From an uncultured Methanolobus sp. (GTDB taxonomy: Archaea; Halobacteriota; Methanosarcinia; Methanosarcinales; Methanosarcinaceae), in assembly GCA_963675495.1 (NCBI GenBank), contig OY776215.1, positions 160,001-224,000 of the forward strand: a stretch of DNA of 64,000 nucleotides, read 5' to 3'. Positions 29,830 through 48,335 of this stretch are shown here, piece after piece. Position numbers and translations under genes: made by a program. The notes under the pieces were generated by a model, which had not been told where the DNA came from, ran no database searches, and was given only the letters and a program-made list of their open reading frames with translations. Position 1 is the first letter of the stretch. The number at the start of each line of letters is the position of its first letter.

Positions 29830-29886
29830 GCATCCTACCGATACCTTAATATCTAACCTTTACAATTAAGGGAATGCATTCACCAT

Positions 29887-29959
29887 AGCCCGGTAGTGTA
29901 GTGGTCAATCATGCAGGACTCTGGATCCCGCAACCTCGGTTCGAATCCGTGCCGGGCTA
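29887..29959 (+). tRNA. tRNA-Gln (anticodon CTG)
   Basis: AGCCCGG/CCGGGCT acceptor stem, CT-CTG-GA anticodon loop, GGTTCGAATCC T arm; 73 nt, no encoded CCA. Confidence 0.95.
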
Positions 29960-31052
29960 TAAAAATTATTTAGATAGTCCTCTTCTAAATGCGTTTTTTA
30001 TGCTTTACATCTACAAGAAAGTCACATACGTTTAGGGTGTTTTGTGCGCAACTCAAAGAGTGAGCTTTAAACTTAGTTTTATTAAATGTTGTGTTAATTA
30101 TTGACAATAACTTCTTTTTGAGACAAATTAACCAAGGAATAAATTCCCTACTATATGTACAGAGAGAACGTAAGCGTTCAATCTATGATTGTACGCTGGA
30201 GTTGGAACGGTAAGCACCCTCTTGGGTGTGAGGACGAAGGCAGCGACCCCTTCTTAGCCCTAAAACAGTTCGCTATAAGTGACTTTCATATTTTCCATCA
30301 CGTGAAAACCATCTACGCTTATATTATTTCTACTGGATTTTTAAGGCTAACTGATCAGTTTGAGACAAGTTCCTGACGTGTGCCACTTTCTTATTGTTTT
30401 ATCCCGCAGCTTTTTATTATTGAATCTACTTATCGTCCCTCGGTTTTATTGGTCAATGAAGATGCTTTTTCTACTGCACATGATTTACATATGATACTTA
30501 TAGAATACATGTATACGTTGAAGATACTTCAAGAGTGATTCTTTACTTAACTTGATAACATCTTTGCATTAAACTAAGTTTTTATAATGATATTTTTTTG
30601 GTTTGTGTTCTTTTCGAACTTATCCGGTGCTCGAACACAATTAATCTCGAGGATTTGCTCAGATGCCCACAGAGAGAAGATATTGTGGAATAGATGTGAG
30701 TCTACCATTTAGATGGAGTCGATTGAAATAGCTTTATTATTGAATATGTTTTACAATGTCTATTAATCTAAAGAAATTGTTAGCTTTTTTGCATCAACAC
30801 ACGTTTATACCTAAATTTTAAGAGTTGCTAATCTTAATAAGGAATGTAACTGTTATTTAGAATTGCAAGCTATATTGCAACTACAGTCACATGCTTTTAA
30901 CGTATGTGTTTTTTGAATTAATACCTTTAAGATATTTGATTTTGAAAAAGAAATGGACGATAAGGTTATGAATTGCCTATCAATCAAAAATCTGCATACC
31001 TTGAGTTCATAATAAAAGAAAATGTATTGTCTTGACGTATGGCATTTCTATT

Positions 31053-31260
31053 AATGTAGATACATTCTACGTACAAACTTTTTGCTTGTTGTTACAAATG
31101 TGTTAAGATTTAGTTGCAAATCAGTGGTAGATACCTTTAAATACTATTTAAAAAAGTACATTTACAATTAATTTATATGATGGTATGAATATCATTTTAG
31201 TGCTGTAAGAGCATAACCAACAATATCAATTAACAATCTCTAAAAATATAAAAGAAATTG
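31053..31260 (-). repeat. Copy 3 (inverted) of the ~225-bp non-coding repeat
   Basis: TTCTACGTACAAACTTTTTG...CTGTAAGAGCATAAC..ACAATATCAA is the reverse complement of copies 1 and 2. Confidence 0.9.
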
Positions 31261-31387
31261 GGCTCTGTAGAAACTCTCACTGTATAAAACATTATAGGTC
31301 CAAAAAATCGTAGCTTGTGATGCAAATGTTGAAACTTAATCTAATTTTCATATATATAAGTTGATTTGAGAGGTATTCTAGAGAGCC
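31261..31387. mobile_element. MITE (~127 bp)
   Basis: Terminal inverted repeats GGCTCTGTAGAA / TTCTAGAGAGCC. Confidence 0.7.
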
Positions 31388-31462
31388 GGATTTTTGCCTA
31401 ATCATATGGTATCATGGATTACCTGCTTTCTGGAATTTTCACTCACAACATTGTACGAAATA

Positions 31463-33829
31463 TCAGTAAATGCTCTTGTTTTTTATCTTGGACTTTCTGT
31501 TATTTTTTTCGGCACGTCTGTCTAAATATTTCTCAAAATGCTCAGGATAACCTGATTCAATTTCATTTTCAAATGACTTTTCCAGCAGATATCTATTATC
31601 TCCAAGAAACCATCTATGATATAATGGATCTTCATTAACCATTTGTACTATTTCTGAATTGGCTAATTGTTGATTAAGATGTGATTTTAATACCGATCTA
31701 TTTCCTTCTTTTTTAGGAAGAACGTCATCAAAGATACCATCTTCATAAAAATCAGGGTTCATGATTACATTATTTAATTCCCCAAAAAGCTCTTTTACAA
31801 AAGACATAGAAGGCCTCACAGCATCGTTAATAAAAAGTACCTTATTTTGCATTTGAGTTGAGAACATGTTTCTGATATATGCAAATTTACTATTATCCGA
31901 TTTTAGTTTCAAAATCATTGCAACAGGATCTTTGATATGACTGACTTTCAAAACCTCTAATTCTGAATTTATTTTTAATTCTGCTTTTGAATATACGGTG
32001 GTGTTTGACTCGGACTTATACTCTGCCAGGAAACTGAGCTTATAGCGAATCTCGTAAAACTGTTTTAACTTTATTTGTAAAAAAGTAGGTTCAATACTTT
32101 TGAACTCTGTGAAATCCATATTGTCATACCAATCCTTGAATAAAGTGTGCTCAAATTCACGAAAATTTTGGATAGTAAGATTTGGCTTATATGTTGACAT
32201 TATTTGACTATGGTCTGGGTATTTTGCGTGTTCCATACCAGCACATTGTACAATTCCCTTTTTTAATATCTTGGGATACACCAACAAATTAATAACTGCT
32301 ATATGGATAAGTTTCGTTAAAAAATCACTATTCTCTAATTTGTCTCTGTCGAGAATGGATAAATTGAAACAATCCCACTCCCCGTTCAGTAATTCATTTA
32401 ATGCTAAGGGGGATGTGTGTATAAGAGAGAGTACAGGAACAATTATTTTTTCATATTCGAATTTTTGATAATGCTCAGTTAGTATAGTATCAAAATTATT
32501 ATTTATAAATTCATTATTCAAGTTTTTTATACCAGAGTGTTTCAAAACTTCTTTTTCCATTATATTATAACAATTATCAATATTTCTTATCATAGATTCG
32601 AGATCATAATCTCTATTGTACTCCTCCATTAGTTTTTCAAGACTATCTGGAAGATTTGAGTACATTGCTTTAAGGTCCTCAAGTAACTTGGCTGAATAAT
32701 TTGGATTGTATTCATCTTTATTAATATCAATCTGACTCTTCCATTTATCTTCAAATTCATTCATCTCTGCACTGTAATTATCAGATAAATAATCGTTAGA
32801 TAGCCTTAGGAAACTCTCTATTTCTCTGAGTTTTTCCAGTATTTGTTCATTATAACTCAACACTGTTCTAAGCACCTTTGAGAACGAAATTGCATTATCA
32901 CCATAAAGCAAATAGTAGAAAGTATGAAAATTATCTTCTTTTATGCGGTTGATTTTTTCTATATTCGACATTCCATCACAAAATACTGGTAATTGCAGTT
33001 TCACATCTTCAAGTGGGGATCCAAACGATGGTGATACATATGAACGAGAATCATCAAATCGTTCAATTAATCTAACAGCTAAATTCTCATAATTTTGTAG
33101 TCCACTTTCGATAGAGTTAGTTGAATCATTAACCATTTCCAAAAATCCATTGCAAAATTCTGTCAAGTTATTAATGTGTGAACGTTCAGTTTTTTTTGCT
33201 TCTTCCTCAAACCTGTTAACCATTGATTCAATGATTTCAGTAACATCTTTTTTGCCTTCAGATATACCATAGTTTTTCTCATCCAGGTCTATCAGGCGTT
33301 GAGCACTTTTAAGGTCAAAATCCATGGGTGAAAAGAAACGAGTGATTGTCACTCCTTTTTCAGCCAATACTTCTCTTATGAGAGAATCATTAATGTTGTA
33401 AGTAAAATAGTAATTATCTAGAAGATCCATTGCTTCAGGATATGATAGAGATTTATCCAGATATATTTTTTTAAAACTGCCTTCGAGTATCAATTTGATA
33501 AGTATTCTAAAGGATTTTATTTTTGAACTTAATGAATATGGAGTAATATCCCCTCCCTTTAAATGTTCACCTGGTTCTTTTTCGAGTTTTTCCAAGATTC
33601 CCATGTCTGCAAACAATTCACATGCTTTGATTGCAGTAACTCTTGTCATTTCTTCGATGGTTCTTTCGATTTTTCCTGGATATGTTTTGAAGTGAGATAT
33701 TTCTTCTTTATTATTCCGTTTTTTGTTGCCAAGATATATTTCAATTTTTTTACTTTCTTCAATAATAAAATATTCAAGAATCCTCCACTGCTTCTCAGAA
33801 ATACGTTTTTTGGTATTTTTGTCACTCAC
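31463..33829 (-). CDS. Large hypothetical protein with a probable N-terminal winged-helix domain
   Basis: Long AT-rich ORF; ISEKQWRILEY...MTRVTAIKACELFADMGIL HTH-like segment; GTG 33829 follows GAGGGA. Confidence 0.7.
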   Translation of the reverse strand: MSDKNTKKRISEKQWRILEYFIIEESKKIEIYLGNKKRNNKEEISHFKTYPGKIERTIEEMTRVTAIKACELFADMGILEKLEKEPGEHLKGGDITPYSLSSKIKSFRILIKLILEGSFKKIYLDKSLSYPEAMDLLDNYYFTYNINDSLIREVLAEKGVTITRFFSPMDFDLKSAQRLIDLDEKNYGISEGKKDVTEIIESMVNRFEEEAKKTERSHINNLTEFCNGFLEMVNDSTNSIESGLQNYENLAVRLIERFDDSRSYVSPSFGSPLEDVKLQLPVFCDGMSNIEKINRIKEDNFHTFYYLLYGDNAISFSKVLRTVLSYNEQILEKLREIESFLRLSNDYLSDNYSAEMNEFEDKWKSQIDINKDEYNPNYSAKLLEDLKAMYSNLPDSLEKLMEEYNRDYDLESMIRNIDNCYNIMEKEVLKHSGIKNLNNEFINNNFDTILTEHYQKFEYEKIIVPVLSLIHTSPLALNELLNGEWDCFNLSILDRDKLENSDFLTKLIHIAVINLLVYPKILKKGIVQCAGMEHAKYPDHSQIMSTYKPNLTIQNFREFEHTLFKDWYDNMDFTEFKSIEPTFLQIKLKQFYEIRYKLSFLAEYKSESNTTVYSKAELKINSELEVLKVSHIKDPVAMILKLKSDNSKFAYIRNMFSTQMQNKVLFINDAVRPSMSFVKELFGELNNVIMNPDFYEDGIFDDVLPKKEGNRSVLKSHLNQQLANSEIVQMVNEDPLYHRWFLGDNRYLLEKSFENEIESGYPEHFEKYLDRRAEKNNRKSKIKNKSIY

Positions 33830-33969
33830 TATACATCCCTCTTTTAATGAAACTAATTGTAAAGCTTTTTTTAAAATCATTTACAAATACAATTCTCTAA
33901 GTGTTTACTTCTTTGAAAACTATTTATATATTTCTAGGAAATTAGAACTATCAACTAAAGGAGGTTAGA

Positions 33970-34080
33970 ATGATGGATAAAAAATCAGATTGTGACAACC
34001 ATGCAAACCAGTGTAATCCGAACAATGACGCGTACTGGCAGAGCCGTGGTGAAGATGCAAAACCAGATGACAGTGAATAA
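33970..34080 (+). CDS. 36-aa microprotein MMDKKSDCDNHANQCNPNNDAYWQSRGEDAKPDDSE
   Basis: Strong GGAGGT RBS; more GC-rich than its flanks; below the ORF-track cutoff. Confidence 0.7.
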   Translation: MMDKKSDCDNHANQCNPNNDAYWQSRGEDAKPDDSE

Positions 34081-34143
34081 AAGTGTAAGTAATAATTGTA
34101 GAACAAAGGAAAACGTTGTTGAACATAGATTAGGAGGAATATA

Positions 34144-34266
34144 ATGTCAGGTAAATCAATGGATTCTAAAGCAGCATCAAGGATACAGTCAAGCTCAGAC
34201 AAGTCAGGATCAAATCAGGGTTTCAAGGCCCGTGCAATGTCTGCAGCATCCAAAAACAAAAAATGA
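34144..34266 (+). CDS. 40-aa basic microprotein MSGKSMDSKAASRIQSSSDKSGSNQGFKARAMSAASKNKK (SMP/LEA-like motif)
   Basis: AGGAGGA RBS; AASRIQS...FKARAMSAA pattern resembles the seed-maturation-protein repeat. Confidence 0.7.
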   Translation: MSGKSMDSKAASRIQSSSDKSGSNQGFKARAMSAASKNKK

Positions 34267-34312
34267 AGTTACCCCAGCTTCATTTCACTTTCTTTTATCA
34301 GGAGATATTACA

Positions 34313-35049
34313 ATGATAAGCGACATTAAAAATGAAAACTTGAAACAAAATGCTTTGGCAGTATTGATTGATGGCGACAACACTTCATACAGGTGTTTGA
34401 AGCAAATATTCAACGAGGTTGCAAAGTATGGTACAGCAACTATCCGCAAAGCTTATGGTGACTAGACATCCCAGGAACTGGCTCCATGGAGAGAGGTGCT
34501 TCAAGAATATGCAGTGCACCCAAGTCAGCAGTTCAGAAATGTAGGCAGTAAGAACTGTACCGACAGTTCACTTATCATAGAAGCCATGGACATTCTCTAC
34601 AACGAAAAGATCGATGGTATTGTAATAGTCTCCAGTGACAGTGATTACACACGCCTTTCTATGCGTTTTAGAGAAGAAGGTTATTTGTTCTGGGTATTGG
34701 TCGCAAACAGACTCCCAGGCCATTTGTAACGGCCTGCAGAAATTTTGTTTACGTTGAAAACCTCATAGACAAGAATGTAGAAAAGGATGATATATCAGAC
34801 AAAATTGAAGCAAAAAAGAAACAAGTATCTAAAACTCGAAAGATACTGGAAAATGCATATGAAAAACTCTCTGAAGGAAATGAATTGATACTGTTGTCAA
34901 AAGTCAGCAATATGCTGAGAAATCTAAATCCTGACTTTGATCCCCGTAATTATGGTTATTCCCAGCTTAACAAACTGGTTGAGGATGCAGGTGGATTTGA
35001 ATTGGTAAAAAAGAAGAATCATTTATACATGCGAAAATCGAGTTCCTGA
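34313..35049 (+). pseudogene. NYN-domain RNase with a C-terminal OST-HTH/LOTUS domain, disrupted
   Basis: LIDGDN, YGD*, KNCTD, SSDSDY and FDPRNYG motifs; TAG at 34463 replaces the conserved Trp; 1-bp deletion near 34681. Confidence 0.85.
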
Positions 35050-35171
35050 TCGGTTCGCTTCTGATCAGTACTATACATGAGATTGATATAATCTCTATTT
35101 TCTTTTAATTTTAAATCTTCAGGAAAGAGTAAAAGCACAAGAAAATAAGCAGTTTAACTGTCAAACTTAGA

Positions 35172-35306
35172 TTATAAATAATAACATGTATCTTCAGTCT
35201 GCTGGATAACGGAACCTGATGTAAAACATATATCAATATTCTTTATCTCTTTCACCACAGTTGATTTTTCAATCTCTCTTACTCTCGTAAAACAGATTAT
35301 TCTCAT
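35172..35306 (-). pseudogene. Decayed P-loop nucleotide-kinase 5' fragment
   Basis: MRIICFTRVREIEKSTVVKEI: three single G>A changes separate it from GVRGIGKST. Confidence 0.5.
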
Positions 35307-35366
35307 GTTTTCATAACATTGGTATTCTAATCGGTATGCAATGTTTGCCAAAAAGAAAGGGCCGGT

Positions 35367-36266
35367 TCAATTCCAGTCATAGTTACCTCCCCTTTTGTGA
35401 TACTGATCAGCATCCACCAAATCAGTAAGTTCCATGTATTCCAATGATTCAAAAGGAATTGAAGAACGCTGCTTGTCATTGCTCAAAATAATATCCCCGT
35501 CTGGACCAATTATCAAATAGGAGTTCAGCATATCATTTGCTGATTCAAATGTAGGTGTTTCACCATTGCTGAGCACCATTCTTCCATTTATGTTCATGAA
35601 TGTGTCAAATTCTTCCTCAGTGAGGAGCAGATCAAGTGCATCATCATTCTGTCCCTTCATGTGAAGTACCTGGAATACCTTCCATCTCTCAGGATGTAGT
35701 GATAATATGAAATGTGTCATATCTTCGGAATAATTCAGTTTGGTAACTGTAGTATTTATCTTCAGCTTCATACCATATTTCCGTACAAATTCAGAAACTT
35801 TGCGTACGTGTTCAACATGGTTTCCATCTCCTCTTCCTAGTTGTTTTTGAATTTCCTCATCAGAAGAGTCAATTGATATACCAACCCAATCCACATAACG
35901 GCTCATTTCCTTGAGCTTATGTTCATTGAGCAAAGTTGCGTTTGTAACAATACTGACAGTGAATCCTATATCTTTTGCCATCTTTAAAAGATAGCTTAAA
36001 TCCTTGTATAGTAGAGGTTCTCCACCTGCAAAATTAATCTTCGTGATACCTTTGGACTTCAATGTCTCAAGCTTATGCTTAGCATTTTTAAGGTCTTTGA
36101 ATTCCCCACTCATATTTTTGTAGAAGCAGAACCTGCATTTATAATTACAATTCATGGTAACATGCCAGTTAACAGATTTTATCTCTGCATTTGTTATCGA
36201 ATCGAAATCAGAAATAGTATCTTTAAAATCCACTCTGGTAGGTATATCTACTAATGAACCACTCAT
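35367..36266 (-). CDS. Prokaryotic viperin (antiviral radical SAM ddhNTP synthase)
   Basis: SVNWHVTMNCNYKCRFCF, KINFAGGEP, GRG, KINT, RWKVFQ, SYLI and RGGNYDW are all viperin hallmarks. Confidence 0.95.
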   Translation of the reverse strand: MSGSLVDIPTRVDFKDTISDFDSITNAEIKSVNWHVTMNCNYKCRFCFYKNMSGEFKDLKNAKHKLETLKSKGITKINFAGGEPLLYKDLSYLLKMAKDIGFTVSIVTNATLLNEHKLKEMSRYVDWVGISIDSSDEEIQKQLGRGDGNHVEHVRKVSEFVRKYGMKLKINTTVTKLNYSEDMTHFILSLHPERWKVFQVLHMKGQNDDALDLLLTEEEFDTFMNINGRMVLSNGETPTFESANDMLNSYLIIGPDGDIILSNDKQRSSIPFESLEYMELTDLVDADQYHKRGGNYDWN

Positions 36267-36658: not shown

Positions 36659-37708
36659 TTATTTCAATCCCCAATGACCGTTTCCAACCATGTAAAATAT
36701 GTCAAGATTGCCAGCCTTATAAGAACCTGTACCACTTGAATGCAATGCAATAGTCTTTCTGACACTATTTTTCCAGGAAGGTGTTAGATTCATATTATCT
36801 CTTTTTTCAATCTCATTGAATATATCTTCATTTTTTGCATCTCCACCTAACGTATCAAGTACACTGATTATTTCTTCAAGCCATGTATGTTTCGAAGATA
36901 ATTTTCTTGTATCAATAATAGGTGAAACAGGTTTTGTTGATACAACTGAAACAGGCTTTATAGAACTATCTTTTTCTTTATTTGTTAATGTTTCAATGAC
37001 AAGTTCAAGTGCAAATTTTTCACCTTGAGAGAGACTTGCATCTCTTGCATGTTTGAAAACAATCGTATTATATTGGTACGCTCTGTCATCTGAACTGATT
37101 AGAAGAGGTTGTTTACATCTTAATTGATAGTCAAGTATGCTTTTTAATGATGGTGATCTGTTTTTTGTATCAAGCGATAATCTGAAATTTTGGGTGAAAT
37201 AACGAGTTGCAAACATCCCCATCAAAATGATACATTTGGGTTTCATTGTATTGATGATCTCATCAAAATACATCTCAGCACATTTTAGGTCAGGTGCATT
37301 ATCTCTTCCACCAGCACCTTTTCCTGGATAACAATTTGCAGTATGCAACCAAAATACGCTTTTTTGCCACTTTTTCATTGCCTCACTTGGTTCGTCCTCA
37401 GGATATACCTTTGGAAATAAGAGATCTTTGAAAAAGGAGTTATTCATAGAACTCAATTCGTTGTCTGCCCATGCTTGTTTGGAAGGTGCTTGCGATATGA
37501 ATAAAATATCTTGTCCTCTCCAATCATCAACTAATGGTTTACCTTTTTTCAGTTCATCTGCACTGATTACTCGATTACCTTTTGTTCTCAAAGGATTCGT
37601 ATACTCATGAGTGTAACAAGCTAAGTTACAGTTACGTATTTTATTAACAATCTCTGTCATTGCTTTATCTTTTTCATTTTCATGAGTATCAAATGGCAAA
37701 TCAAACAC
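36659..37708 (-). CDS. Uracil-DNA-glycosylase-superfamily protein with a C-terminal winged-helix domain
   Basis: ILFISQAPS and NCYPGK...P...C motifs; C-terminal LGG...IFNEI...WKNSVR...GHWGL wHTH. Confidence 0.7.
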   Translation of the reverse strand: MFDLPFDTHENEKDKAMTEIVNKIRNCNLACYTHEYTNPLRTKGNRVISADELKKGKPLVDDWRGQDILFISQAPSKQAWADNELSSMNNSFFKDLLFPKVYPEDEPSEAMKKWQKSVFWLHTANCYPGKGAGGRDNAPDLKCAEMYFDEIINTMKPKCIILMGMFATRYFTQNFRLSLDTKNRSPSLKSILDYQLRCKQPLLISSDDRAYQYNTIVFKHARDASLSQGEKFALELVIETLTNKEKDSSIKPVSVVSTKPVSPIIDTRKLSSKHTWLEEIISVLDTLGGDAKNEDIFNEIEKRDNMNLTPSWKNSVRKTIALHSSGTGSYKAGNLDIFYMVGNGHWGLK

Positions 37709-37884: not shown

Positions 37885-40446
37885 ATGCAAGAATCTATCA
37901 ACCTTATCCAATCACAAGCTACTAAATTAAAAAAACTGGAAGAAAATGAAAATTATCTTTTCGAACAATTAAACACCCTCGACGCTGATACTATAAGCAA
38001 GCTAATCAGTAATTTTGAGATTGAATACTTCCAGCCAGTTAACCTCTTACGTTTTGAAATCTTGCAGCACATAAAAGATAAAAAGATAGTGACACCTGAA
38101 TTAGTTGAAGAGATTAAGGATAAGATAGTAGCAAAAGATAGTGGTTACTTTTCAAAATACGGTGAAGCATTAGTAAACGGATTGTTGAATTATCCTGTAA
38201 AAAAGAAGACACCATTTGTGAACTGGAAGAAATATTATAGTATTTGTTTCCCATTTTTCTATCTTCCTAAAGACAAAATAGAATCTGACAATGGTCTCGA
38301 GAAAATTACAAATTATCTCATTAATACATTGGAATTGAAACAATACAAAACTCATATAGTCGGATTTGAAGGAGCTCAGAATTATGGCGCTTCATTTTGC
38401 TGGATTGCTTTGTTTCCAAATAAAAGGGTATCTCACAAGAAAGCATACCAGTTGTTTTTACGTATAAATAATCTGACAATTGATGCTGGTGTTTTTCCTG
38501 GATCGGATATAAATGACCCCTCTTCGAATACAGTTGATGAGTTTAATACTGTAGAGGAAGTGCTTGATAAGCTGCAAAATTCCAGAGAAATGGCTCAAAG
38601 TAAAAATGATTCACTAATTGATTATTGGAAATTTGCGCCAGGAGAAAATGGTAGTCGCTGGGAAGAATTTTATGAGTTAGGTATAATGGCAATTGGTTGG
38701 GATAATTTAGATGACCTCACTAATTACGCAACTGAAGAACTTGCTGATTCCTTAAATGTTGAGAATTCTTCCACCTCAAATCAAATATGGAATATTGAAA
38801 ATTTCAGAGATACTAGTATTGGTGATATAGTTGTAGCAAACAAGGGAAGAAGTAAGTGTTTAGGAATTGGTGTCATAGAGGGAGAATATATTTTTGATAA
38901 CAAAAGAACTGAATACAAGCATATTAGAAAAGTGAATTGGGTCATAAATGAGCTTGTAGATTTTGATAAAACAATTTTTAGGCCAGATACATTTTCTCCC
39001 ACTCTCAAATGGGAGACTATTAAAGGGAAATATATTAGTGTAAATCCTTCTTATGAAGATGTTTTCAACAACATAGAAGCAGGAAAAGTTGTTTTACCTC
39101 CTGCAAAGGTGTTGCCAAATGATTCAGGAACACAGAATTATTGGTGGCTGAATGCAAATCCAAAAATTTGGAAGATTGACAGTTTTGAGTTAGGTGACAT
39201 TCAGTCTTATACATCACATAACAACAAAGGCAACAAAAGAAGGGTGTACAAGTATTTTGAAGAAGTAATGCCTGGAGATCTAGTAATTGGATATGAAAGT
39301 TCCCCGATAAAGGAGATTAAAGGAATATTTGAGATTACAGAAAAACTACATTATGATGATATTGAAGGCGAAATAATCAGCTTTGAGATAAAGGAACTGG
39401 TTAAAGATATCATTAGTTGGGATGACCTAAAAGAAACTAAAGGTTTAGAAGAATGTGAAGTCATTAAGAACAATCAAGGTAGCTTATTCAAGTTAACAGC
39501 TGAAGAATTTGAAATAATAAGAGATCTGATTGACGAACGGAACATCAATAATGAAAAAGAAAAAGAACTATTGGACATAAAAGAATATTCCTTTTTTTCA
39601 GATGCAGATAAACCATTTATTGAAGAAGCTGAACTTAACGACATATTAGATTCTCTCGAAATCAAAAAGAACATTGTACTACAAGGTCCTCCTGGTGTCG
39701 GAAAAACTTTTGTTGCGAAAAAAATAGCTTATGAAATTATGAAAAAGACCGATGATACAAAAATTGAAATTGTCCAGTTCCATCAGTCATATTCATACGA
39801 AGATTTTATACAAGGCATCAGGCCATCAGAAAATACCTTTAAGGTTAAAAATGGTGTTTTTCATAATTTCTGCAAGAAAGCAGAACAAGACCCCGAAAAT
39901 AAGTATTTCTTCATAATTGATGAGATCAACAGAGGAAATCTCAGTAAAATTTTCGGAGAACTAATGATGCTGATAGAAACTGATAAGAGGGGCAAATCTA
40001 AAGTTCACCTGACTTATTCTGAAAAAGATGATGCTCCATTCTCTGTTCCAGAAAACCTTTATTTGATTGGTACGATGAACACCGCTGACCGTTCGCTGGC
40101 TATTGTTGATTATGCTTTGAGGAGAAGATTTAGGTTCATCCCATTAAAACCAAAGTTCAATAATAAATTTATTGATTTGCTAATTTCACAAGGTTTCTCA
40201 AAAGATTTTGTACTTGCTGTTATAACAAAAATCAATTCATTGAATGATAAAATCCAATCTGATCGAAACCTTGGAGAAGGATTTCAAATTGGTCATAGCT
40301 TTTTCTGTACCAATAATGTGAATAAGCCTGAAAGAGAGTGGTTTGAAGATATTGTGAAATATGAAATTGCACCACTTTTGGAAGAATACTGGTTTGATGA
40401 CATTGAAAAATCGAAAGCTGAAGTAAGACTGTTATTGTCTGAGTAA
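37885..40446 (+). CDS. mcrB: McrB-family AAA+ GTPase with EVE/PUA-like reader domains
   Basis: GPPGVGKT, QFHQSYSYEDF, IDEINRG and MNTADRS motifs; YWKFAPG and YWWLNANP domains. Confidence 0.92.
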   Translation: MQESINLIQSQATKLKKLEENENYLFEQLNTLDADTISKLISNFEIEYFQPVNLLRFEILQHIKDKKIVTPELVEEIKDKIVAKDSGYFSKYGEALVNGLLNYPVKKKTPFVNWKKYYSICFPFFYLPKDKIESDNGLEKITNYLINTLELKQYKTHIVGFEGAQNYGASFCWIALFPNKRVSHKKAYQLFLRINNLTIDAGVFPGSDINDPSSNTVDEFNTVEEVLDKLQNSREMAQSKNDSLIDYWKFAPGENGSRWEEFYELGIMAIGWDNLDDLTNYATEELADSLNVENSSTSNQIWNIENFRDTSIGDIVVANKGRSKCLGIGVIEGEYIFDNKRTEYKHIRKVNWVINELVDFDKTIFRPDTFSPTLKWETIKGKYISVNPSYEDVFNNIEAGKVVLPPAKVLPNDSGTQNYWWLNANPKIWKIDSFELGDIQSYTSHNNKGNKRRVYKYFEEVMPGDLVIGYESSPIKEIKGIFEITEKLHYDDIEGEIISFEIKELVKDIISWDDLKETKGLEECEVIKNNQGSLFKLTAEEFEIIRDLIDERNINNEKEKELLDIKEYSFFSDADKPFIEEAELNDILDSLEIKKNIVLQGPPGVGKTFVAKKIAYEIMKKTDDTKIEIVQFHQSYSYEDFIQGIRPSENTFKVKNGVFHNFCKKAEQDPENKYFFIIDEINRGNLSKIFGELMMLIETDKRGKSKVHLTYSEKDDAPFSVPENLYLIGTMNTADRSLAIVDYALRRRFRFIPLKPKFNNKFIDLLISQGFSKDFVLAVITKINSLNDKIQSDRNLGEGFQIGHSFFCTNNVNKPEREWFEDIVKYEIAPLLEEYWFDDIEKSKAEVRLLLSE

Positions 40447-40450
40447 ATCC

Positions 40451-41488
40451 ATGTCCATTCCAATTCAGAATATCTACTACCTTTTGTGTTATGCATGGAA
40501 CAAGCTTGATGAAAGCGATATTGTAGATGTCAAAGCAATCAGTATTACTGAACTTGTTGATCTATTTGCAAAAATATTAGCTAATAGTACTTCCAGATTG
40601 CTAAAACAGGGTTTGGATCGTTATTATGTTGAACATGAATACGTTGTAAATGGAATAAAGGGGAAATTAGACCTTACTGCTTCTGTAAAAAGAAATCTTC
40701 TTCCTTCAAATAGAACCGTTTGCCATTACGATGAATTTGATTATGATATCTTACACAATCAAATTTTAAAAACAACGATTTCCAAACTTATTAGGACGAA
40801 TGGCCTTGACCCTAAATTAAGAGATGAACTACATCGAATTTTAATAAAACTCCCTCCGATTTCGGAAATTTCAATTCGGCACTCTCATTTTAGTCAAATT
40901 CGATTACACAGGAATAATTACAATTATGATTTTCCATTAAAAGTGTGCCAAATTATCAATGAAAATTTGTTTATTGATGAGTCATCGGGAAATTACAAAT
41001 TTAAAGATTTCTTGCGAGAAGAAAAGGCAATGGCAAGATTATTTGAGGCATTTATTAGAAACTTCTATAAAGTAGAACAGTCCGAATTTAAAGTAGGAAG
41101 AGAAGATATAAAATGGAAATTTGTAGCTGAAAAAGAGACGCCTATATCGATGTTGCCTAAAATGTCCACTGATATTTCATTGGTATCATCCTCAAGAAAA
41201 ATAATAATTGATACCAAATATTATAAAGAAGCTCTTAAGGCTAGATTTTCGCAAGAAAAAATAAATTCCAACAACTTGTACCAGTTATTTTCTTATTTAA
41301 TAAATCAGGAGTCAGAGTCGGATGCCAAAACTCTGAACTGTGAAGGTATTCTGTTATATCCAGCTGTTGAAAAGGGCTTTGATTTTTGCTATAATTATGA
41401 AAATCATAGAATCAGAGTGATGTCAATAAACCTTAATCAAGAGTGGTATGATATCAGGAAGGATTTGTTGGAAATACTCTCTAGATAG
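40451..41488 (+). CDS. mcrC: McrC restriction nuclease subunit
   Basis: IPIQNIYYLLCYAW, TDI...IIDTKYY, LYQLFSY and GILLYP motifs. Confidence 0.93.
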   Translation: MSIPIQNIYYLLCYAWNKLDESDIVDVKAISITELVDLFAKILANSTSRLLKQGLDRYYVEHEYVVNGIKGKLDLTASVKRNLLPSNRTVCHYDEFDYDILHNQILKTTISKLIRTNGLDPKLRDELHRILIKLPPISEISIRHSHFSQIRLHRNNYNYDFPLKVCQIINENLFIDESSGNYKFKDFLREEKAMARLFEAFIRNFYKVEQSEFKVGREDIKWKFVAEKETPISMLPKMSTDISLVSSSRKIIIDTKYYKEALKARFSQEKINSNNLYQLFSYLINQESESDAKTLNCEGILLYPAVEKGFDFCYNYENHRIRVMSINLNQEWYDIRKDLLEILSR

Positions 41489-41649: not shown

Positions 41650-43713
41650 ATGATAATTGAACAGTTATTTATTGCAAATTTTAGATGTTTTGGACCGGAT
41701 GAAACAAAAATTGATTTTGGTGATTTAACTACTATAATTGGTGCTAATAGCAGTGGCAAGTCTGCATTATTAAGTGCTTTGCTTAAATTATTTGGCAGAA
41801 CTGGAAAAGAGAGAGAAATTAAAAGATCAGATTTTCATATTCCTATTGGAAAGAAACCAGAGGAGATTGTTGAAAATAGCTTATATATTGAAGCAACAAT
41901 TTCTTTCCCTGAGTTGGTTAAAGATGAAGAATATGCAAAAAAAACAGTTCCTAGCTTATTCCGAAAAATGGTTGTGCATGAACCTGATGGTGATCCATAT
42001 ATTAGAATTCGTTTAGAAGCTTCTTGGAAGCAAAGCAATTCACCTGATGGAGAAATCGACTCAAATATATCGTTTATTAGTATTTCAAGGGATGAAGATG
42101 AAGAAATATCTAATGAAAATAAACATATTGCAAAATTAAGTGATATAAGATCTAATATTCAAATGATTTACGTTCCTGCTATTAGAGAACCTTCAAAAGA
42201 GTTAAAAAATGCTTCTGGAACTATACTTTGGAGAATTCTAAATGGTATTAATTGGCCTGAAGACATCAATGAAAAAATAAACAAACAAATGGAACCTGTA
42301 AATTCTATTTTTGATTGTCAACAAGGAGTTAAAAGAGTACAGGAAATCATTCAGACCCAATGGAAATCCTACCACAAAGATTACAGATATACAAAAACTA
42401 AAATCAAATTTACTAGTAGCGATTTAAGTGATATACTAGATAAGATTGACATAGAGTTTTCACCAACAGAAATTCCTAAATCATACAATATTGATTCTCT
42501 AGGAGAAGGTTTAAGGTCTTTGTTTTATCTATCCCTCGTAAGTTCTTTACTTGATGTTGAATTTGAAGCTCAATCTAACACCGAGCAGGATATCTTTGAT
42601 TTATCGCCTCCCGCTTTAACAATTCTAGCTGTCGAAGAACCAGAAAACCATATATCTCCTCAACTATTAGGTAAAATAATTGATAATATCGAGAAGATTT
42701 CTGAAAAATGTAATTCTCAAGTATTTTTGACTTCACATTCACCTTCAATAGTAAAGAGAATAAAACCTGAAACAATTCGTCATTTAAGAATAAATAAGAG
42801 TAACTTATGTACTGCGATAAGTACAATTACTCTTCCTCCTGGAGAAAATGAAATACACAAGTATGTAAAAGAAGCAGTTACTAGGTACACTGAAATTTAT
42901 TTCTCTAGACTAGTTGTATTTGGGGAAGGAGATTCAGAATCAATCATAATTCCAAAAGCTATTGAAACATTGGGTTCAAAAGTAGATTCCGCTGGAATTA
43001 GTGTTGTGCCATTGGGTGGTAGATTTGTTAATCATTTTTGGAAATTATTAACTAACCTTGAGATACCTTATATTACATTACTTGATTTGGATTCAGAAAG
43101 GGCAAAAGGAGGATGGGAAACTATAAAATATGCAATTACTCAACTCATAGAAAATGGTCACACACTTGAAGAAATATGTGATTTTGAAGAGTGTGAATCA
43201 CTGTCTCAGGGTATGTTTGATTCAATGCACAACAGATTATTAAAAACTGATACTGACAGAAGTAAAATCAAAAAATGGGCAGAACATCTTGAGAAATTTG
43301 GTATTTATTATTCTTTTCCTCTTGACGTTGATTTTTCAATGCTTAAGGCTTTTGAAGAGAGTTATAGAATCCCTTCTCCTGGTGGCAGAGGACCTACTAT
43401 TCCAGACAAAAATACTAAGCCATTTGAATATGCTGAAAAAATGGAAAAATGTATTCGTCATACTTTAAAAGAAAGTGGAGGAGATGGCAATACTTACTCT
43501 GATAATGAAAAAGAGTTTATGCTCTGGTATCCTTATTTATTCCTCGATCATGGTAAACCTAGTACTCATATTTTAGCAATGAATAGATTAGATGATGCAG
43601 TCTTCAAAGAAAAGATGCCTGATTCTTTAAAGAGAATGGTTGATTCAATTAAAACCGAATTAGAAGACGATTACTTATCTACTCTCTGTGAAATAACTGA
43701 ACAGGGTGATTAA
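41650..43713 (+). CDS. gajA: OLD-family ABC-ATPase/TOPRIM nuclease (Gabija GajA-like)
   Basis: GANSSGKS, LGEG, EEPENH, TSHS; TOPRIM GEGDSE and DLD. Confidence 0.85.
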   Translation: MIIEQLFIANFRCFGPDETKIDFGDLTTIIGANSSGKSALLSALLKLFGRTGKEREIKRSDFHIPIGKKPEEIVENSLYIEATISFPELVKDEEYAKKTVPSLFRKMVVHEPDGDPYIRIRLEASWKQSNSPDGEIDSNISFISISRDEDEEISNENKHIAKLSDIRSNIQMIYVPAIREPSKELKNASGTILWRILNGINWPEDINEKINKQMEPVNSIFDCQQGVKRVQEIIQTQWKSYHKDYRYTKTKIKFTSSDLSDILDKIDIEFSPTEIPKSYNIDSLGEGLRSLFYLSLVSSLLDVEFEAQSNTEQDIFDLSPPALTILAVEEPENHISPQLLGKIIDNIEKISEKCNSQVFLTSHSPSIVKRIKPETIRHLRINKSNLCTAISTITLPPGENEIHKYVKEAVTRYTEIYFSRLVVFGEGDSESIIIPKAIETLGSKVDSAGISVVPLGGRFVNHFWKLLTNLEIPYITLLDLDSERAKGGWETIKYAITQLIENGHTLEEICDFEECESLSQGMFDSMHNRLLKTDTDRSKIKKWAEHLEKFGIYYSFPLDVDFSMLKAFEESYRIPSPGGRGPTIPDKNTKPFEYAEKMEKCIRHTLKESGGDGNTYSDNEKEFMLWYPYLFLDHGKPSTHILAMNRLDDAVFKEKMPDSLKRMVDSIKTELEDDYLSTLCEITEQGD

Positions 43714-45583
43714 ACTGAGATTGTCACAGGCGGATTGGAAACCATCAGATGATTTCATTTTAGAAACAAATGCTTTAGACATTGCAAAATCATCAAGAAA
43801 TTATAGTGTGACAGCTGGCCCAGGAGCAGGCAAGACGGAATTGCTTGCACAAAGGGCCTGTTTTTTGTTACAAACTAATGTTTGTACAGAACCAAGAAGA
43901 ATACTTGCAATTAGTTTTAAAAAAGATGCAGCTAAGAATATTGCAAACAGAGTTAAAATGAGATGCGGTGATGAATTATCTGAAAGGTTTGTATCTTTAA
44001 CTTATGCTTCATTTGCCAAGGAAATCCTTGATCACTTTAGAAAAGCTCTTCCAGAAGAGTATAGGCCCTCGCAAGAGTATGAAATTATGTCACATAATGG
44101 CGCGATTACAGATCGCTTTTTAGGTTCCTTTGATTCACATTCCAACTTAAATATATCAACTGAAGAGATAAGAAACCTTCCAAAACACTTGACAATTAAT
44201 AAATTACCCTTGAATCATGGTGCAAATTGGGATTTAAATGAAGTAATACTTAAAATATGGGAAAGATGCGTAAATTCAGACTCTGAAGAATCAAAGTTAA
44301 CTTTTTCAATGATTACAAGATTGAGTGAGTTTTTAATACGTGAAAATAAGAAAATCCATAACTCTCTAATTGCAACCTATAGTCATGTTTTTTTGGATGA
44401 GTTTCAAGATACAACTACTGATCAATATGATTTAATTAATACATGCTTTTTAGGAACAAACACGATATTAACTGCAGTAGGTGATAAGAAACAAAGAATT
44501 ATGATGTGGGCAGGCGCAGATGTAAATGTATTTGAAAAATTCAATATAGACTTCCAAGCAGAACCTTGTGAATTAATGATGAATTATCGATCAGCTCCCA
44601 GACTTGTTGAAATACAAAAAATATTAATTGAAAACATGAGTGAAGATAATAACAATATATCTGCACATAATAGATGGAGTAATGATGATGGGATTTGTGA
44701 AATTTGGAATTTTGAAAATAACCAGAGTGAAGCAGAAATACTTTCTGCAAAAATAAATCAATGGATTTTAGAAGATAGTTTAAATCCTGAAGATATATGC
44801 ATTCTTGTGAAGCAAAGACCAGATACCTACTATGAGCTTTTAGCGAGTAAGTTAGACATATATGGTGTAAAAATTAGGAATGAAAGTTTATTGCAGGATT
44901 TGATATCTGAAGAATGTGTAAACATTTTGTTAGAGATAATTTTGTGTGCTTTTTCTAAAAGTTCAATACAAGAATGGACAAATACTAGAAATCTTCTTAG
45001 ATTGACAAGATTCATTTCACCAGAAGAATCCGATTTTAGAAGGATCCAAAAAGTTGATGATGAATTTGATTTGAAAATTGAAAATATTATTGATTTATTA
45101 GAGAAAGTTTCTACCAAAATCGAATTGAGAATAGTTTTACATGATATTATTGATTTTTTCGGAAAAGAAAATTTATTCAACCTCTATCCTCAATACAAAC
45201 AGGGCACATTTTTCAACCAAAAAATCAATGATTTATCTGAATATTTGTGGAATGAATATTTATTATATAATGATTGGGCAGAATCTGTTTACTCATTACA
45301 GGGAAAAGATGCAATCTCCCTTATGACAATACACAAAAGTAAAGGTCTTGAGTACAACACTGTAATCTTTTTAGGATTGGATGATGAACAGTTTTGGACC
45401 TTTAGAAGGCAACCTGAGGAAGACACCTGTGCTTTTTTCGTTGCACTCTCAAGAGCTAAGGAAAGAGCAATTTTTACTTTCTGTAAAAGAAGAAATAATG
45501 GTAGATCCATTAATCGGTCAAATATCAGTTCTCTATACAGCATGTTAGAAGAATCTGGAATCGTTGAGACTCGCACTTTCTGA
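43706..45583 (+). CDS. gajB: UvrD-like helicase (Gabija GajB-like)
   Basis: AGPGAGKT, DEFQD, VGDKKQ, NYRS and TIHKSKGLEY motifs; overlaps gajA. Confidence 0.85.
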   Translation: MIKLRLSQADWKPSDDFILETNALDIAKSSRNYSVTAGPGAGKTELLAQRACFLLQTNVCTEPRRILAISFKKDAAKNIANRVKMRCGDELSERFVSLTYASFAKEILDHFRKALPEEYRPSQEYEIMSHNGAITDRFLGSFDSHSNLNISTEEIRNLPKHLTINKLPLNHGANWDLNEVILKIWERCVNSDSEESKLTFSMITRLSEFLIRENKKIHNSLIATYSHVFLDEFQDTTTDQYDLINTCFLGTNTILTAVGDKKQRIMMWAGADVNVFEKFNIDFQAEPCELMMNYRSAPRLVEIQKILIENMSEDNNNISAHNRWSNDDGICEIWNFENNQSEAEILSAKINQWILEDSLNPEDICILVKQRPDTYYELLASKLDIYGVKIRNESLLQDLISEECVNILLEIILCAFSKSSIQEWTNTRNLLRLTRFISPEESDFRRIQKVDDEFDLKIENIIDLLEKVSTKIELRIVLHDIIDFFGKENLFNLYPQYKQGTFFNQKINDLSEYLWNEYLLYNDWAESVYSLQGKDAISLMTIHKSKGLEYNTVIFLGLDDEQFWTFRRQPEEDTCAFFVALSRAKERAIFTFCKRRNNGRSINRSNISSLYSMLEESGIVETRTF

Positions 45584-45626: not shown

Positions 45627-48335
45627 TCACCATCCCTTCAAAAGATGTTGTTTCTTCTCATTATCATCAAGCACCTTCGCACAGGATTCCCAGTCAATAG
45701 AGACCGGTTTATTATACCGTATTTCAAATGGATGCCTCGGAGGTATCTCGTCAATGGTTTTCATTGCATCATCTATCTTATTCAATGCAACATCTACCCA
45801 TACATCCTCAAGTACATCAGGTATCTGGCCAAAAAGCGAGTTGATCTTTTCAAGCCTCTCTGAAAGAAGTTCATGTACTCTGTCCTCTACTGAACCCTTA
45901 TAGCGCATATTGTAGATCCACACGTCATCATAGACTTGGCCAATACGCTGTATCCTTCCTTTTCTCTGTTCAAGTCTTGTTGGGTTCCAGGGTAAATCAA
46001 GGTTAATGAGTGTACCGAGTGTCTGAAGGTTCAGACCCTCACTGGCGGCATCCGTTCCAAGTAACAGTTTTATTGTGCCTTTGCGTACAAGTGCCTTGAT
46101 CTCTTCACGTGATGCACGCTGGAATGTTCCATTTTCTATGATACCAGAACGATTGCTTCCTGCATATATGCCAATCTTCTCTTCGGTTAACTCTTCTTTT
46201 AGTTTATCGGCAAGCCACTGTATAGAATCATAGTATTGTGAAAAAATGATGCAACCCCGCTCAAGCCATCTATCGTTCTTCAGAATATCCAGGACTTTTT
46301 CATATTTAGGGTCGGTGTCCATATGCTCATTAATTATCTGAGCGAACCTTGACAACAGGAATCTTTCGGCTTCAGACATGTTTTCAAAGAGCTCACTTCT
46401 CTGAACATCTTCTTCTTCTTCTTCGGAATCAAACTCTGAATCCTTGCGAACTCCAAGCATTTTATTTGCAGTGACTTTTCCTGCATATAATGTACTTCCA
46501 ACACGTCTAAGAAGAAGGGTTTTTAAGAAGCCTGTACCTTTTGCCCTTTCGCTAAGTAACTGACAGAACTCTTCTGCAGCCTTATATGCATCCTGAAGAT
46601 ATATTGGGAGAGGAATCGCATCCTTATCGTCCTCTCCGAACAGTTTGACCTCGATCTTCTGAATGTATGGCTCTCCTGTTTCAGGATTCTTGGTATTTTC
46701 AAGGAAATCCCTTGTTCTTCGTACTATATGCCTAATGTAAGGGTTATGATTCTGAAAAAAGTCATCTTTCATTCTTTCAAGTCTTGCTCTATCAGGAGGA
46801 CTGAGCTCAATCCACCTTCCTGAATTTGTAACTGCCACAGAATCAGGAAGTGAAAGAGAACTTCTGATAATCTGATAATCTAATCCTTCTGAAGTCGGAG
46901 GCAAGGGGTTAGCTATGTAATTAAAGAGTCCATCTTCATTTATATCCAAGGGCTTATTTCCTTGGATCATATCCAAAGATATAAATGGCTCTTTTATCCA
47001 AGTGCTACGTCTGTTACCTAAAACAGATTCATTTCCTCCACTTCCAAGTATGGATAGAAGATCGTATGCTTCGATAGGGTAGAGCTGTACAGGTGTTGCT
47101 GTTGCCAGAAGCATACTTTTACTATTTCCTGCAATCTCCTGGAGGAAAGCAAGAAGGTTATTTGGTTCCGCTCCTTCATTCTCATGTGTAGGACCGAGAT
47201 TCTTCCTTCTGGCCCTGTGAGATTCATCAACGATAATGCAGTCGTATTTTTTTGACTTTAATAAATCTGGTATGTTCGACCTTTCGTTCCCATAAGAATG
47301 GATTATTAGGCCATACGAGAGGATACCAATCCTACGAGGACATTTTAGTATGCCTTCTTCACCATATTTTGGATATTCGATCCCTTCTTCATCTACCCAC
47401 CTGCCATTGTCCCATACTGCAGATGGAAGGTTTAGGTGCTCTTTCATCTCATCCTGCCACTGCCAGCGCAGGGTTGCAGGTGTGAGAATCAATATGGGTT
47501 TATCTCCAGTAAGAGCGATCAACTGTGCTGTCATTGCCAATTGTAGTGTTTTGCCAAGCCCTACCATGTCTGCAAGGACGAAGCGTGCTCCATGCTTTGT
47601 TTGATGGGCCTTGAATGCAATGTCTATGAAGTATTTCTGATGCTCCCAGAGTCCGAGTTCATTCCTGTAAACCGGACTTTCTACAATCGCAGATGCAGCT
47701 TCCGGTTGTTTCTGCCATTCGATGAGTGATGGTATAACTTCACGTTTTGCAATCCTTCCGATGTCTTCAATTATGAATTCTGCAAGCACCTTATAGTCCG
47801 GATGGTTCCACAGGGCATCAAACTCTTCCTGCACCCAGTTAATGGCATCGTCGGAATCATCTTCCCATACAAGCTCATAGTTACGTTTCCAGGCGGACAG
47901 TGTCTCATTGATGCTTCCCATGAATGCAGTTTTTGTCCCATCGGTCTTTGTTATGACCCCGGCTTTCCCATGGATCAGCCCGAATGACTTGTCAGGAAGC
48001 ACCCTTACCTGAAGTTTCCCGGACTTCAGATACTTGTAAAGTTTCGCAAATCTGCCACGAGCTTTCTCATCAACCTTTTCAGGTTCCTCTGCACACCACT
48101 CTTTCCGTATAGCTGCAAGAGCAGCACGTGCAGTTTTCACATCTTCAGGTTCAAGCTGTGAGTTACACACAACCCGAACAGTCCCTTCAACCGAATCCAG
48201 CGCCTCTCCCGCAACCTCAAGAATAGATGAACTGAAATAGCCTGCTATTCTATCATATTTCTTAGCACCTTCAAGGCGCTTGTTAAGGAACGTTGCATCC
48301 AGAGGTTCCCGGCGGGATGAGAAACGTTTGATCAA
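45627..48335 (-). CDS. PLD-nuclease / SNF2 helicase fusion of the restriction-like (DUF499) system
   Basis: IHGKAG...GSINET PLD motif; DMVGLGKT, DESHR, SEGLNLQ and WNPTRLEQRKGRI helicase motifs. Confidence 0.9.
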   Translation of the reverse strand: MIKRFSSRREPLDATFLNKRLEGAKKYDRIAGYFSSSILEVAGEALDSVEGTVRVVCNSQLEPEDVKTARAALAAIRKEWCAEEPEKVDEKARGRFAKLYKYLKSGKLQVRVLPDKSFGLIHGKAGVITKTDGTKTAFMGSINETLSAWKRNYELVWEDDSDDAINWVQEEFDALWNHPDYKVLAEFIIEDIGRIAKREVIPSLIEWQKQPEAASAIVESPVYRNELGLWEHQKYFIDIAFKAHQTKHGARFVLADMVGLGKTLQLAMTAQLIALTGDKPILILTPATLRWQWQDEMKEHLNLPSAVWDNGRWVDEEGIEYPKYGEEGILKCPRRIGILSYGLIIHSYGNERSNIPDLLKSKKYDCIIVDESHRARRKNLGPTHENEGAEPNNLLAFLQEIAGNSKSMLLATATPVQLYPIEAYDLLSILGSGGNESVLGNRRSTWIKEPFISLDMIQGNKPLDINEDGLFNYIANPLPPTSEGLDYQIIRSSLSLPDSVAVTNSGRWIELSPPDRARLERMKDDFFQNHNPYIRHIVRRTRDFLENTKNPETGEPYIQKIEVKLFGEDDKDAIPLPIYLQDAYKAAEEFCQLLSERAKGTGFLKTLLLRRVGSTLYAGKVTANKMLGVRKDSEFDSEEEEEDVQRSELFENMSEAERFLLSRFAQIINEHMDTDPKYEKVLDILKNDRWLERGCIIFSQYYDSIQWLADKLKEELTEEKIGIYAGSNRSGIIENGTFQRASREEIKALVRKGTIKLLLGTDAASEGLNLQTLGTLINLDLPWNPTRLEQRKGRIQRIGQVYDDVWIYNMRYKGSVEDRVHELLSERLEKINSLFGQIPDVLEDVWVDVALNKIDDAMKTIDEIPPRHPFEIRYNKPVSIDWESCAKVLDDNEKKQHLLKGW

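Follow-up and report, generated by a model that had tools for sequence, protein, structure and literature searches.

A basic microprotein of 40 aa, here called P2, together with its frequent partner P1, an acidic microprotein of 36 aa, probably forms a portable accessory module of nucleotide- and nucleic-acid-directed defence genes in archaea and in a few bacteria. The two genes face a viperin gene in an uncultured Methanolobus sp., within a stretch of 64,000 nucleotides (contig OY776215.1 of assembly GCA_963675495.1, positions 160,001 to 224,000) that is referred to as the window; coordinates given without a locus name are those of the window. The module would be joined to its partner genes by adjacency, by translational coupling or by C-terminal fusion of P2, and the partners would include viperin, NYN RNases, two winged helix-turn-helix (wHTH) families named A and B, and Zn-ribbon, PLD-like and TPR proteins. 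The features of the locus are as follows.

31463-33880, minus strand: family A gene, 805 aa, with an N-terminal winged helix; divergent from P1-P2
33915-33930, plus strand: promoter-like element, an A-rich stretch and then TTTATATA at 33923-33930, about 40 nt upstream of the P1 start
33960-33964, plus strand: Shine-Dalgarno GGAGG of P1, 5 nt before the ATG
33970-34080, plus strand: P1, acidic microprotein of 36 aa with the core DNHANQCNPNNDAYWQSRG
34133-34137, plus strand: Shine-Dalgarno GGAGG of P2, 6 nt before the ATG
34144-34266, plus strand: P2, basic microprotein of 40 aa, a single SMP-type repeat
34313-35049, plus strand: NYN-LOTUS (OST-HTH) RNase pseudogene, from Pfam matches on three pieces and a nucleotide alignment
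35367-36266, minus strand: viperin, intact, 299 aa, from NF038283, PADLOC pVip and the CNYKCRFC radical-SAM motif

The linkage of P2 to viperin was examined in a sample of 401 genomes of the phylum, in which viperin, scored above the NF038283 cut-off, was found in 25 genomes and P2 in 23. Both genes occurred in 15 genomes, P2 only in eight, viperin only in ten and neither in 368, that is, viperin was present in 15 of the 23 genomes with P2 and in 10 of the 378 without it; these counts include related genomes that are not independent, and hence no P value is given. Where both genes were present they lay within about 5 kb of each other in 14 of 15 genomes, and 15 of the 31 P2 loci were that close to viperin, at distances from 135 bp to 5.0 kb (13 loci below 2 kb) and in eight genera from five families. 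By chance, two genes this rare would be expected to lie close together in a 3-Mb genome in far less than one case. Starting from viperin, a hidden Markov model (HMM) of P2 recovered P2 within 1.5 kb at 12 of 30 viperin loci, while no extra copy of P1 or P2 was recovered by HMM at up to 1.5 kb from the viperins of five genomes (G146, G136, G030, G039, and G140). Among all prokaryote genomes a strong viperin match adjoined P2 at 13 of 79 loci, and viperin, family A, family B or NYN-LOTUS was near 25 of the 79; some of these P2 loci come from the same genomes as a sample of 151 genomes of the order that is used below.

The pairing takes at least five architectures. In the first viperin is followed by P2 with gaps of 65–235 bp, in the second viperin is divergent from a conserved gene of 260 aa and P2 comes after that gene, in the third family B is followed by P2 and then by viperin, in the fourth an operon of family A and viperin is divergent from P2, and in the fifth, that of the window, P1, P2, and NYN are convergent on viperin. 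The viperin of the window is only 37–46% identical to viperins at the P2-linked loci. A conserved protein of about 260 aa stands beside viperin and often directly before P2 (L098:5129-5908, L102:309-1088, and L123:5127-5906, with more copies at L137:4018-4800, L141:133-915, and L012:14412-15191); one member only has a weak HFX_2341_N match, and in G230 the frame of the protein continues without a stop into P2, giving an open frame of 344 aa. Three tandem P2-like genes are present in one genome (G415:C1:2175478-2175883), away from the P2 copies that lie close to the two viperins of this genome.

The same association is seen in fused proteins. Of 120 longer proteins with a P2 domain, 97 have it at the extreme C-terminus. 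Three clusters of 333–342 aa (P0119, P0122, and P0136), with a mutual identity of 47–53%, are fusions of viperin and P2 and score 241, 260, and 234 bits, respectively, on NF038283. P2 is also fused to a Zc3h12a-type NYN RNase (PF11977; P0098), to the wHTH family B (P0085) and to a set of Zn-ribbon proteins. In 66 of the 120, mostly proteins of 100–120 aa which often begin with a Gly/Arg-rich stretch, the NPNN motif of P1 stands N-terminal to P2. The linker of the fusions often reads KGGE, which is a translated Shine-Dalgarno site, and the fusions therefore probably arose through loss of stop codons.

The mere existence of such short open reading frames (ORFs) proves nothing because ORFs of this size abound: 10 kb contain 103 that are 25 aa or longer. 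Both genes are, however, conserved. Each is present as a single copy in the 2.87-Mb genome; P1 was found in eight and P2 in 13 of the 151 genomes of the order, and neither was found in the four sampled genomes of genus g7. The 79 P2 loci are spread over many phyla of archaea and some bacteria, and P2 was not found in the viral contigs of the collection searched; P1 has at least 489 metagenome matches and 13 loci on viral contigs. When homologues are compared, the third codon position holds 272 of 475 differences in P1 and 927 of 1728 in P2, and the differences between codons are more often synonymous than non-synonymous in both (175 vs. 159 in P1; 637 vs. 560 in P2). GGAGGTG-type sites lie upstream of nearly every copy of P1 and P2, including the P1 homologues at seven of seven loci examined. 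Because of this conservation, of the third-position and synonymous bias and of the strong Shine-Dalgarno sites, P1 and P2 can be regarded as genuine protein-coding genes. Neither matched a Pfam, NCBIfam or PADLOC family. The 90%-identity protein cluster of P2 includes two sequences named acetate-CoA ligase, one of them the cluster representative, apparently an artefact that arises when very short proteins are clustered.

These results bear on an initial annotation of the DNA, which described 36-aa and 40-aa ORFs with strong ribosome-binding sites; the sequences were indeed present with GGAGG 5 and 6 nt ahead of their ATGs. It also called both ORFs unannotated and missed by gene callers, which did not hold, as the exact P1 and P2 sequences are already on record as proteins of the 2,874,008-bp contig (NCBI and ENA) and the P1 orthologue of Methanolobus vulcani is a RefSeq hypothetical protein. 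Taken as a whole the initial annotation is partly confirmed, being largely right except in the word "unannotated" and in a decayed kinase that is considered below.

The sequence of P2 suggests a helical hairpin. The protein is basic and hydrophilic (pI 10.7, charge +6.5, grand average of hydropathy (GRAVY) -1.09, 3 Gly in 40 residues), and the consensus of the family is M.KK.M..KAASRIQS.ADKSG.NQGFKARAQSAASKNKK. A kinship with the SMP domain was tested by building a profile from 31 sequences of P2 and running it on longer proteins among 5.8 billion sequences. The profile recovered eukaryotic proteins with a PF04927 domain or with the name "SMP domain-containing" at E-values from 1e-9 to 1e-3, among them an SMP domain-containing protein of Volvox (P0174, E 1.2e-9) and a PF04927 protein of Mucor (P0180, E 4.2e-8), as well as P0178-P0194 with precomputed PF04927 matches and other fungal, algal, and coral proteins. 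On inspection of the sequences each repeat of the eukaryotic SMP proteins aligned with P2, the pattern AASRIQS...G.F.ARAQSAA being common to P2 and the recovered proteins with PF04927, the domain of the SMP or LEA D-34 seed maturation proteins. Clusters of the ESM Atlas with 18–19% SMP members point the same way and were treated as a lead only. As the P2 profile recovers PF04927 proteins whose repeats align with it, P2 is read as belonging, with one repeat, to the lineage of SMP (seed-maturation-protein/LEA) domains, and the resemblance to an SMP/LEA repeat that had been noticed earlier is borne out. Unlike the PF04927 proteins, P2 has one repeat of about 40 aa, is prokaryotic and lies within defence islands or is joined to defence enzymes in one protein. 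Plant SMP proteins have a protective role as a "molecular shield," and hydrophilins are defined by a Gly content above 6% together with high hydrophilicity.

P1 is acidic and even more hydrophilic (pI 4.4, charge -5.4, GRAVY -1.93, 1 Gly in 36 residues). Judging from gene order and fusions, P1, with its NPNN motif, is a frequent partner of P2, adjoining it or fused N-terminally to it. When 93 loci were centred on P1, many of them on short contigs, P2 was found at four, family A at three and NYN-LOTUS at one. P1 alone is often located upstream of a TPR protein of about 560 aa, homologous to the TPR protein that comes after P2 in Myxococcales. The members of this TPR(-SEC-C) family have about 560–650 aa (L126:6214-8163 and L173:320-1999, also L176, L178, L187, L193, and L227); the gene ahead of them is P2 in genomes of Myxococcales type and P1 on many contigs from metagenomes. 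A tandem-doubled NPNN motif occurs in P1-like proteins of viral contigs (L253-L262) and of one Methanolobus genome (L016:9977-10177), and in L017 P1 lies among phage-type capsid genes.

The families A and B are both rare. Family A belongs to no Pfam, NCBIfam or PADLOC family, has seven matches in 5.8 billion proteins and gives strong matches of full-length type in seven of the 151 genomes of the order; P2 adjoins it in six of the seven, and family A homologues flank P2 elsewhere. No copy of P1 or P2 was found by HMM near the family A gene of G025. The AlphaFold2 model of family A (pLDDT 76.9) matched only MarR-like winged helices (E at least 0.26) and a generic 4-helix bundle at residues 330–452 (Z 11.3). 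Family B combines two winged helices with two Cys/His sites, has 48 representatives in 1.84 billion proteins and is present in three of the 151 genomes, in all of which P2 is directly downstream of it; its model matched only tandem winged helices (E at least 5e-3). The models of both families, searched whole, point to no function beyond winged helices. The stop codon of family B overlaps the start of P2 in L036 and L039, the family B gene of L014 runs in frame into P2, and a start/stop overlap with P2 is also found at one family A locus.

Apart from these, PLD-like proteins of 830–944 aa are located directly upstream of P2 at eight loci, and TPR or SEC-C proteins, SF1 helicases, NACHT and DEAD/MZB proteins as well as a cluster of sugar-epimerase, GT4, and rSAM-SPASM genes recur near P2. 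The PLD-like genes (L104, L114, L116, L118, L121, L122, L129, and L142) end about 230–260 bp before P2 in Thermoplasmatota-type and other genomes, and one member of the family has a weak S1/CSD-TOTE match. At L037:9986-16376 P2 stands ahead of genes for a B-box/rhodanese protein, a NYN RNase of Zc3h12a type, an NDP-sugar epimerase, a glycosyltransferase of the GT4 "conflict-system" kind and an rSAM-SPASM enzyme, and L149 and L153 have comparable epimerase clusters after P2. A conserved leader is found before P2 or P1, in which a perfect palindrome (TTATTGCAATAA, ATCATTGCAATGAT or TTCATCGCGATGAA) stands about 12–25 nt before GGAGGTG (approximately L014:3377-3420, L015:10259-10300, L036:9945-9985, L039:9950-9985, and L017:2105-2140). 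The unit of leader, P2, and P1 comes after a family B gene in one Methanoperedens genome and after a family A gene in a congener.

The sequence of P2 is almost constant whatever its partner, and P2 can stand alone, which makes it unlikely that it is tailored to its partners; it is more likely that P2 recognizes something universal rather than each partner. All of the partners (viperin, NYN, PLD, helicases, wHTH, and Zn ribbons) deal with nucleotides or nucleic acids, and P2 itself is strongly basic. We infer, as a tentative possibility, that P2 binds a conserved polyanion and by this tethers or gates the partner enzyme, and that P1 masks or tunes P2. In such a mechanism P2 would dock on a polyanionic target of the cell or the virus, which might be RNA, the ribosome or DNA, the docking would hold or gate the enzyme next to it, and the acidic P1 would mask or tune the basic P2. 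A bolder proposal, which we consider doubtful, is that the SMP microdomain is an ancient immune adaptor that docks effectors on a polyanionic hub that is universally conserved, or nucleates a protective or condensate state, with P1 as the switch. The free 40-aa P2, or P2 as a C-terminal tag, would then dock viperin and NYN RNases onto the ribosome or viral RNA.

Alternatively, P1 and P2 may be general stress hydrophilins, LEA-like protectants without any part in immunity, which accumulate in the variable islands that also receive viperin. The SMP/LEA homology of P2, the extreme hydrophilicity of both proteins (GRAVY -1.9 for P1 and -1.1 for P2), the P2 loci that stand alone amid housekeeping genes and the very wide spread of P1, mostly unlinked to P2 or viperin, are all consistent with this. 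On the other hand viperin is often 65–235 bp from P2 (about 1 kb where the arrangement is divergent), P2 and family B overlap at their start and stop codons, as happens at one family A locus too, viperin, NYN, and wHTH proteins are repeatedly fused in frame with P2, and the association is seen at the level of genomes (15 of 23 vs. 10 of 378). A protectant accumulating in islands is an unlikely, though not a far-fetched, explanation.

It is less probable still that P2, alone or together with P1, works as a small mobile cassette or as an element of leader type that acts through RNA or translation, i.e., by coupling or attenuation, and not as a peptide. Such an element would agree with the palindromic leader and GGAGGTG at L014, L015, L036, L039, and L017 and with the unit of leader, P2, and P1 that stands behind both family B and family A genes in Methanoperedens congeners, but the amino acid sequence is conserved across archaeal phyla, bacteria, and eukaryotic SMP proteins, synonymous changes exceed non-synonymous ones and P2 also occurs as a domain at the C-terminus of larger proteins. 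That the peptides act as signals for the HTH or TPR proteins encoded nearby is a very improbable reading. As in RRNPP/arbitrium pairs a small peptide gene adjoins a wHTH (A or B) or TPR protein; unlike the peptides of those pairs, P1 and P2 have no secretion signal and no hydrophobic segment, being strongly hydrophilic, they vary little across phyla and have a near-invariant core, the opposite of signals that diversify in specificity, and P2 is fused to enzymes. Finally, P2 is hardly a precursor of the kind found in ribosomally synthesized and post-translationally modified peptides (RiPPs), modified by the adjoining radical-SAM enzyme: a short peptide gene beside a radical-SAM gene is also found in HXS, a defence system whose peptide effector is reportedly matured by such an enzyme (PMC13128918), but the enzyme of the window, which lacks a SPASM domain, scores as viperin well above the curated cut-off and below the cut-offs of the SPASM models, and P2 pairs equally often with proteins that are not radical-SAM enzymes, is fused to enzymes and is conserved over its whole length.

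Several findings weigh against P2 as an accessory of defence genes and of viperin in particular. Viperin was found at none of the 93 loci centred on P1, and an HMM of P1 placed it within 1.5 kb of viperin at one of 30 loci, that of the window itself. Ten of the 25 genomes with viperin are without P2, and viperin therefore does not need P2. Eight of the 23 genomes with P2 are without viperin and some P2 loci have a housekeeping-like setting (MatE, CorA, and purine genes), and P2 is therefore not specific to viperin; at the 14 Asgard loci of P2 no viperin was found. Part of the linkage may reflect the inheritance of whole operons among kin, and the fusions are gene calls on metagenome contigs, in which sequencing errors are possible. 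With regard to the SMP lineage, the Pfam model (PF04927) scored none of 31 members of the P2 family at an E-value of up to 10, and the P2 of the window gave no Pfam SMP match at up to 1.

As far as genome comparison goes, P2 is a genuine and frequent genetic partner of viperin and NYN-type RNases. The initial annotation had taken both microproteins for partners of viperin-type immunity and had named co-occurrence with viperin or NYN genes as a check; this interpretation is partly supported. For P2 it stands, by virtue of linkage (12 of 30 viperin loci, 15 of 23 against 10 of 378 genomes, and 13 of 79 loci) and of the fusions; for P1 by itself it does not (none of 93 and one of 30 loci), P1 being tied to P2 by adjacency and fusions.

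The radical-SAM gene of the window is, on its profile scores, a bona fide prokaryotic viperin (pVip). It scores 261.8 bits on NF038283 (viperin_w_prok; cut-off 180) over model positions 2–280 of 281 and 264.5 bits on PADLOC pVip; C40, C44, and C47 of its CNYKCRFC motif are invariant across 11 aligned viperins, and the ORF of 299 aa is without stops, so the intact viperin facing P1-P2 that had been described is upheld. In Pfam it matched Radical_SAM and Fer4_12 only; models of SPASM-type maturases scored far below their cut-offs and the Pfam SPASM model was under its cut-off as well. Prokaryotic viperins are said, on the authority of Bernheim et al. in 2021, to make ddhNTP chain terminators.

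The NYN-LOTUS gene starts 46 nt past P2 on the same strand, and viperin is convergent on this P1-P2-NYN operon. The middle piece of the NYN-LOTUS gene scores 58.5 bits on NYN (PF01936; cut-off 24.2), its N-terminal piece 21.9 bits and so below the cut-off, and the OST-HTH/LOTUS domain (PF12872) 40.1 bits (cut-off 23.8). In an alignment with the orthologue of Methanolobus vulcani, an intact gene for 262 aa at 74% nucleotide identity, a TAG at 34463-34465 replaces the TGG of a conserved Trp and 1 nt is deleted after about position 34680. Methanosarcinales can read TAG as pyrrolysine; even so the frameshift parts LOTUS from NYN and the gene is still broken. The gene is thus confirmed as a decayed NYN/OST-HTH RNase, unlike the intact orthologues that follow or face P2 in G099, G124, G059, L151, L161, and L240. 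A kinase gene had been thought to have decayed as well while the microproteins stayed intact. This was true of NYN (TAG and frameshift) and not of the kinase, as no remnant of one was detectable in 35040-35380 by tblastx, blastn or six-frame reading, the only match there being a weak one to the region downstream of the viperin of M. vulcani. With P1-P2 intact and NYN-LOTUS decayed, viperin and the family A gene are likely to be the working partners left in the window.

The TTTATATA box upstream of P1 was read by eye; an identical string is kept in Methanolobus vulcani and presumably corresponds to the archaeal BRE/TATA consensus. By its predicted gene content the surrounding region is a defence island next to a tRNA-Gln gene. 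The tRNA-Gln(CTG) at 29886-29960 is followed by about 1.5 kb without long ORFs (29886-31460) ahead of the island genes, and this stretch may be the integration border of the island; at the M. vulcani locus a phage-type integrase adjoins the family A gene. On the other side of the locus a 349-aa protein (36659-37708, minus strand) lies between viperin and McrB and has a weak match to the uracil-DNA-glycosylase superfamily (23.4 bits, just under the cut-off of 24.3). It is followed at 37885-41488 by an McrB-like GTPase of 853 aa with an N-terminal EVE domain (PF01878), which scores 326 bits on NF008457, below the cut-off of that model, and by McrC (PF10117). At 41650-45583 an OLD-family ATPase/TOPRIM gene (AAA_15, OLD-like_TOPRIM) overlaps a UvrD-type helicase gene, a pair that we take to be Gabija-like from its domain content. 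Further defence-type genes of the same island are located at 45627-51941 (minus strand), namely a PLD-SNF2 helicase (902 aa), a 261-aa ORF without a family and a 966-aa DUF1156 protein.

The closest likeness is to the pairs of pVip and a nucleotide kinase, in which a second gene is similarly kept beside viperin or fused to it; the partner there is an enzyme and here it is an SMP-like protein of 40 aa. According to passages of a study of viperin evolution, a kinase is found with 5% of the viperins of archaea and 12% of those of bacteria (10.1101/2023.09.13.557418), and against the former figure P2 was within 1.5 kb at 12 of the 30 viperin loci here. No published account of P2 as a viperin partner was found and the motif strings of P1 and P2 were found in no paper; the portions considered of two studies of viperin evolution (10.1101/2023.09.13.557418; PMC10732462), which excluded the supplementary neighbourhood tables of the preprint, mention kinases only and no small protein. 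P2 looks like an overlooked accessory part of archaeal antiviral defence.

Few immune enzymes are common to prokaryotes and animals; viperin is one of them, and the partner gene known for it encodes a nucleotide kinase. If P2 modulates viperin or other effectors, it would be a new component of a conserved antiviral pathway and would provide the first cellular context for the SMP/LEA domain. If the SMP microdomain were indeed an ancient immune adaptor, it would follow that the SMP/LEA proteins with multiple repeats found in plants, algae, and fungi descend from a prokaryotic defence-associated module. Neighbourhood analysis that takes small ORFs into account can uncover accessory parts of defence systems.

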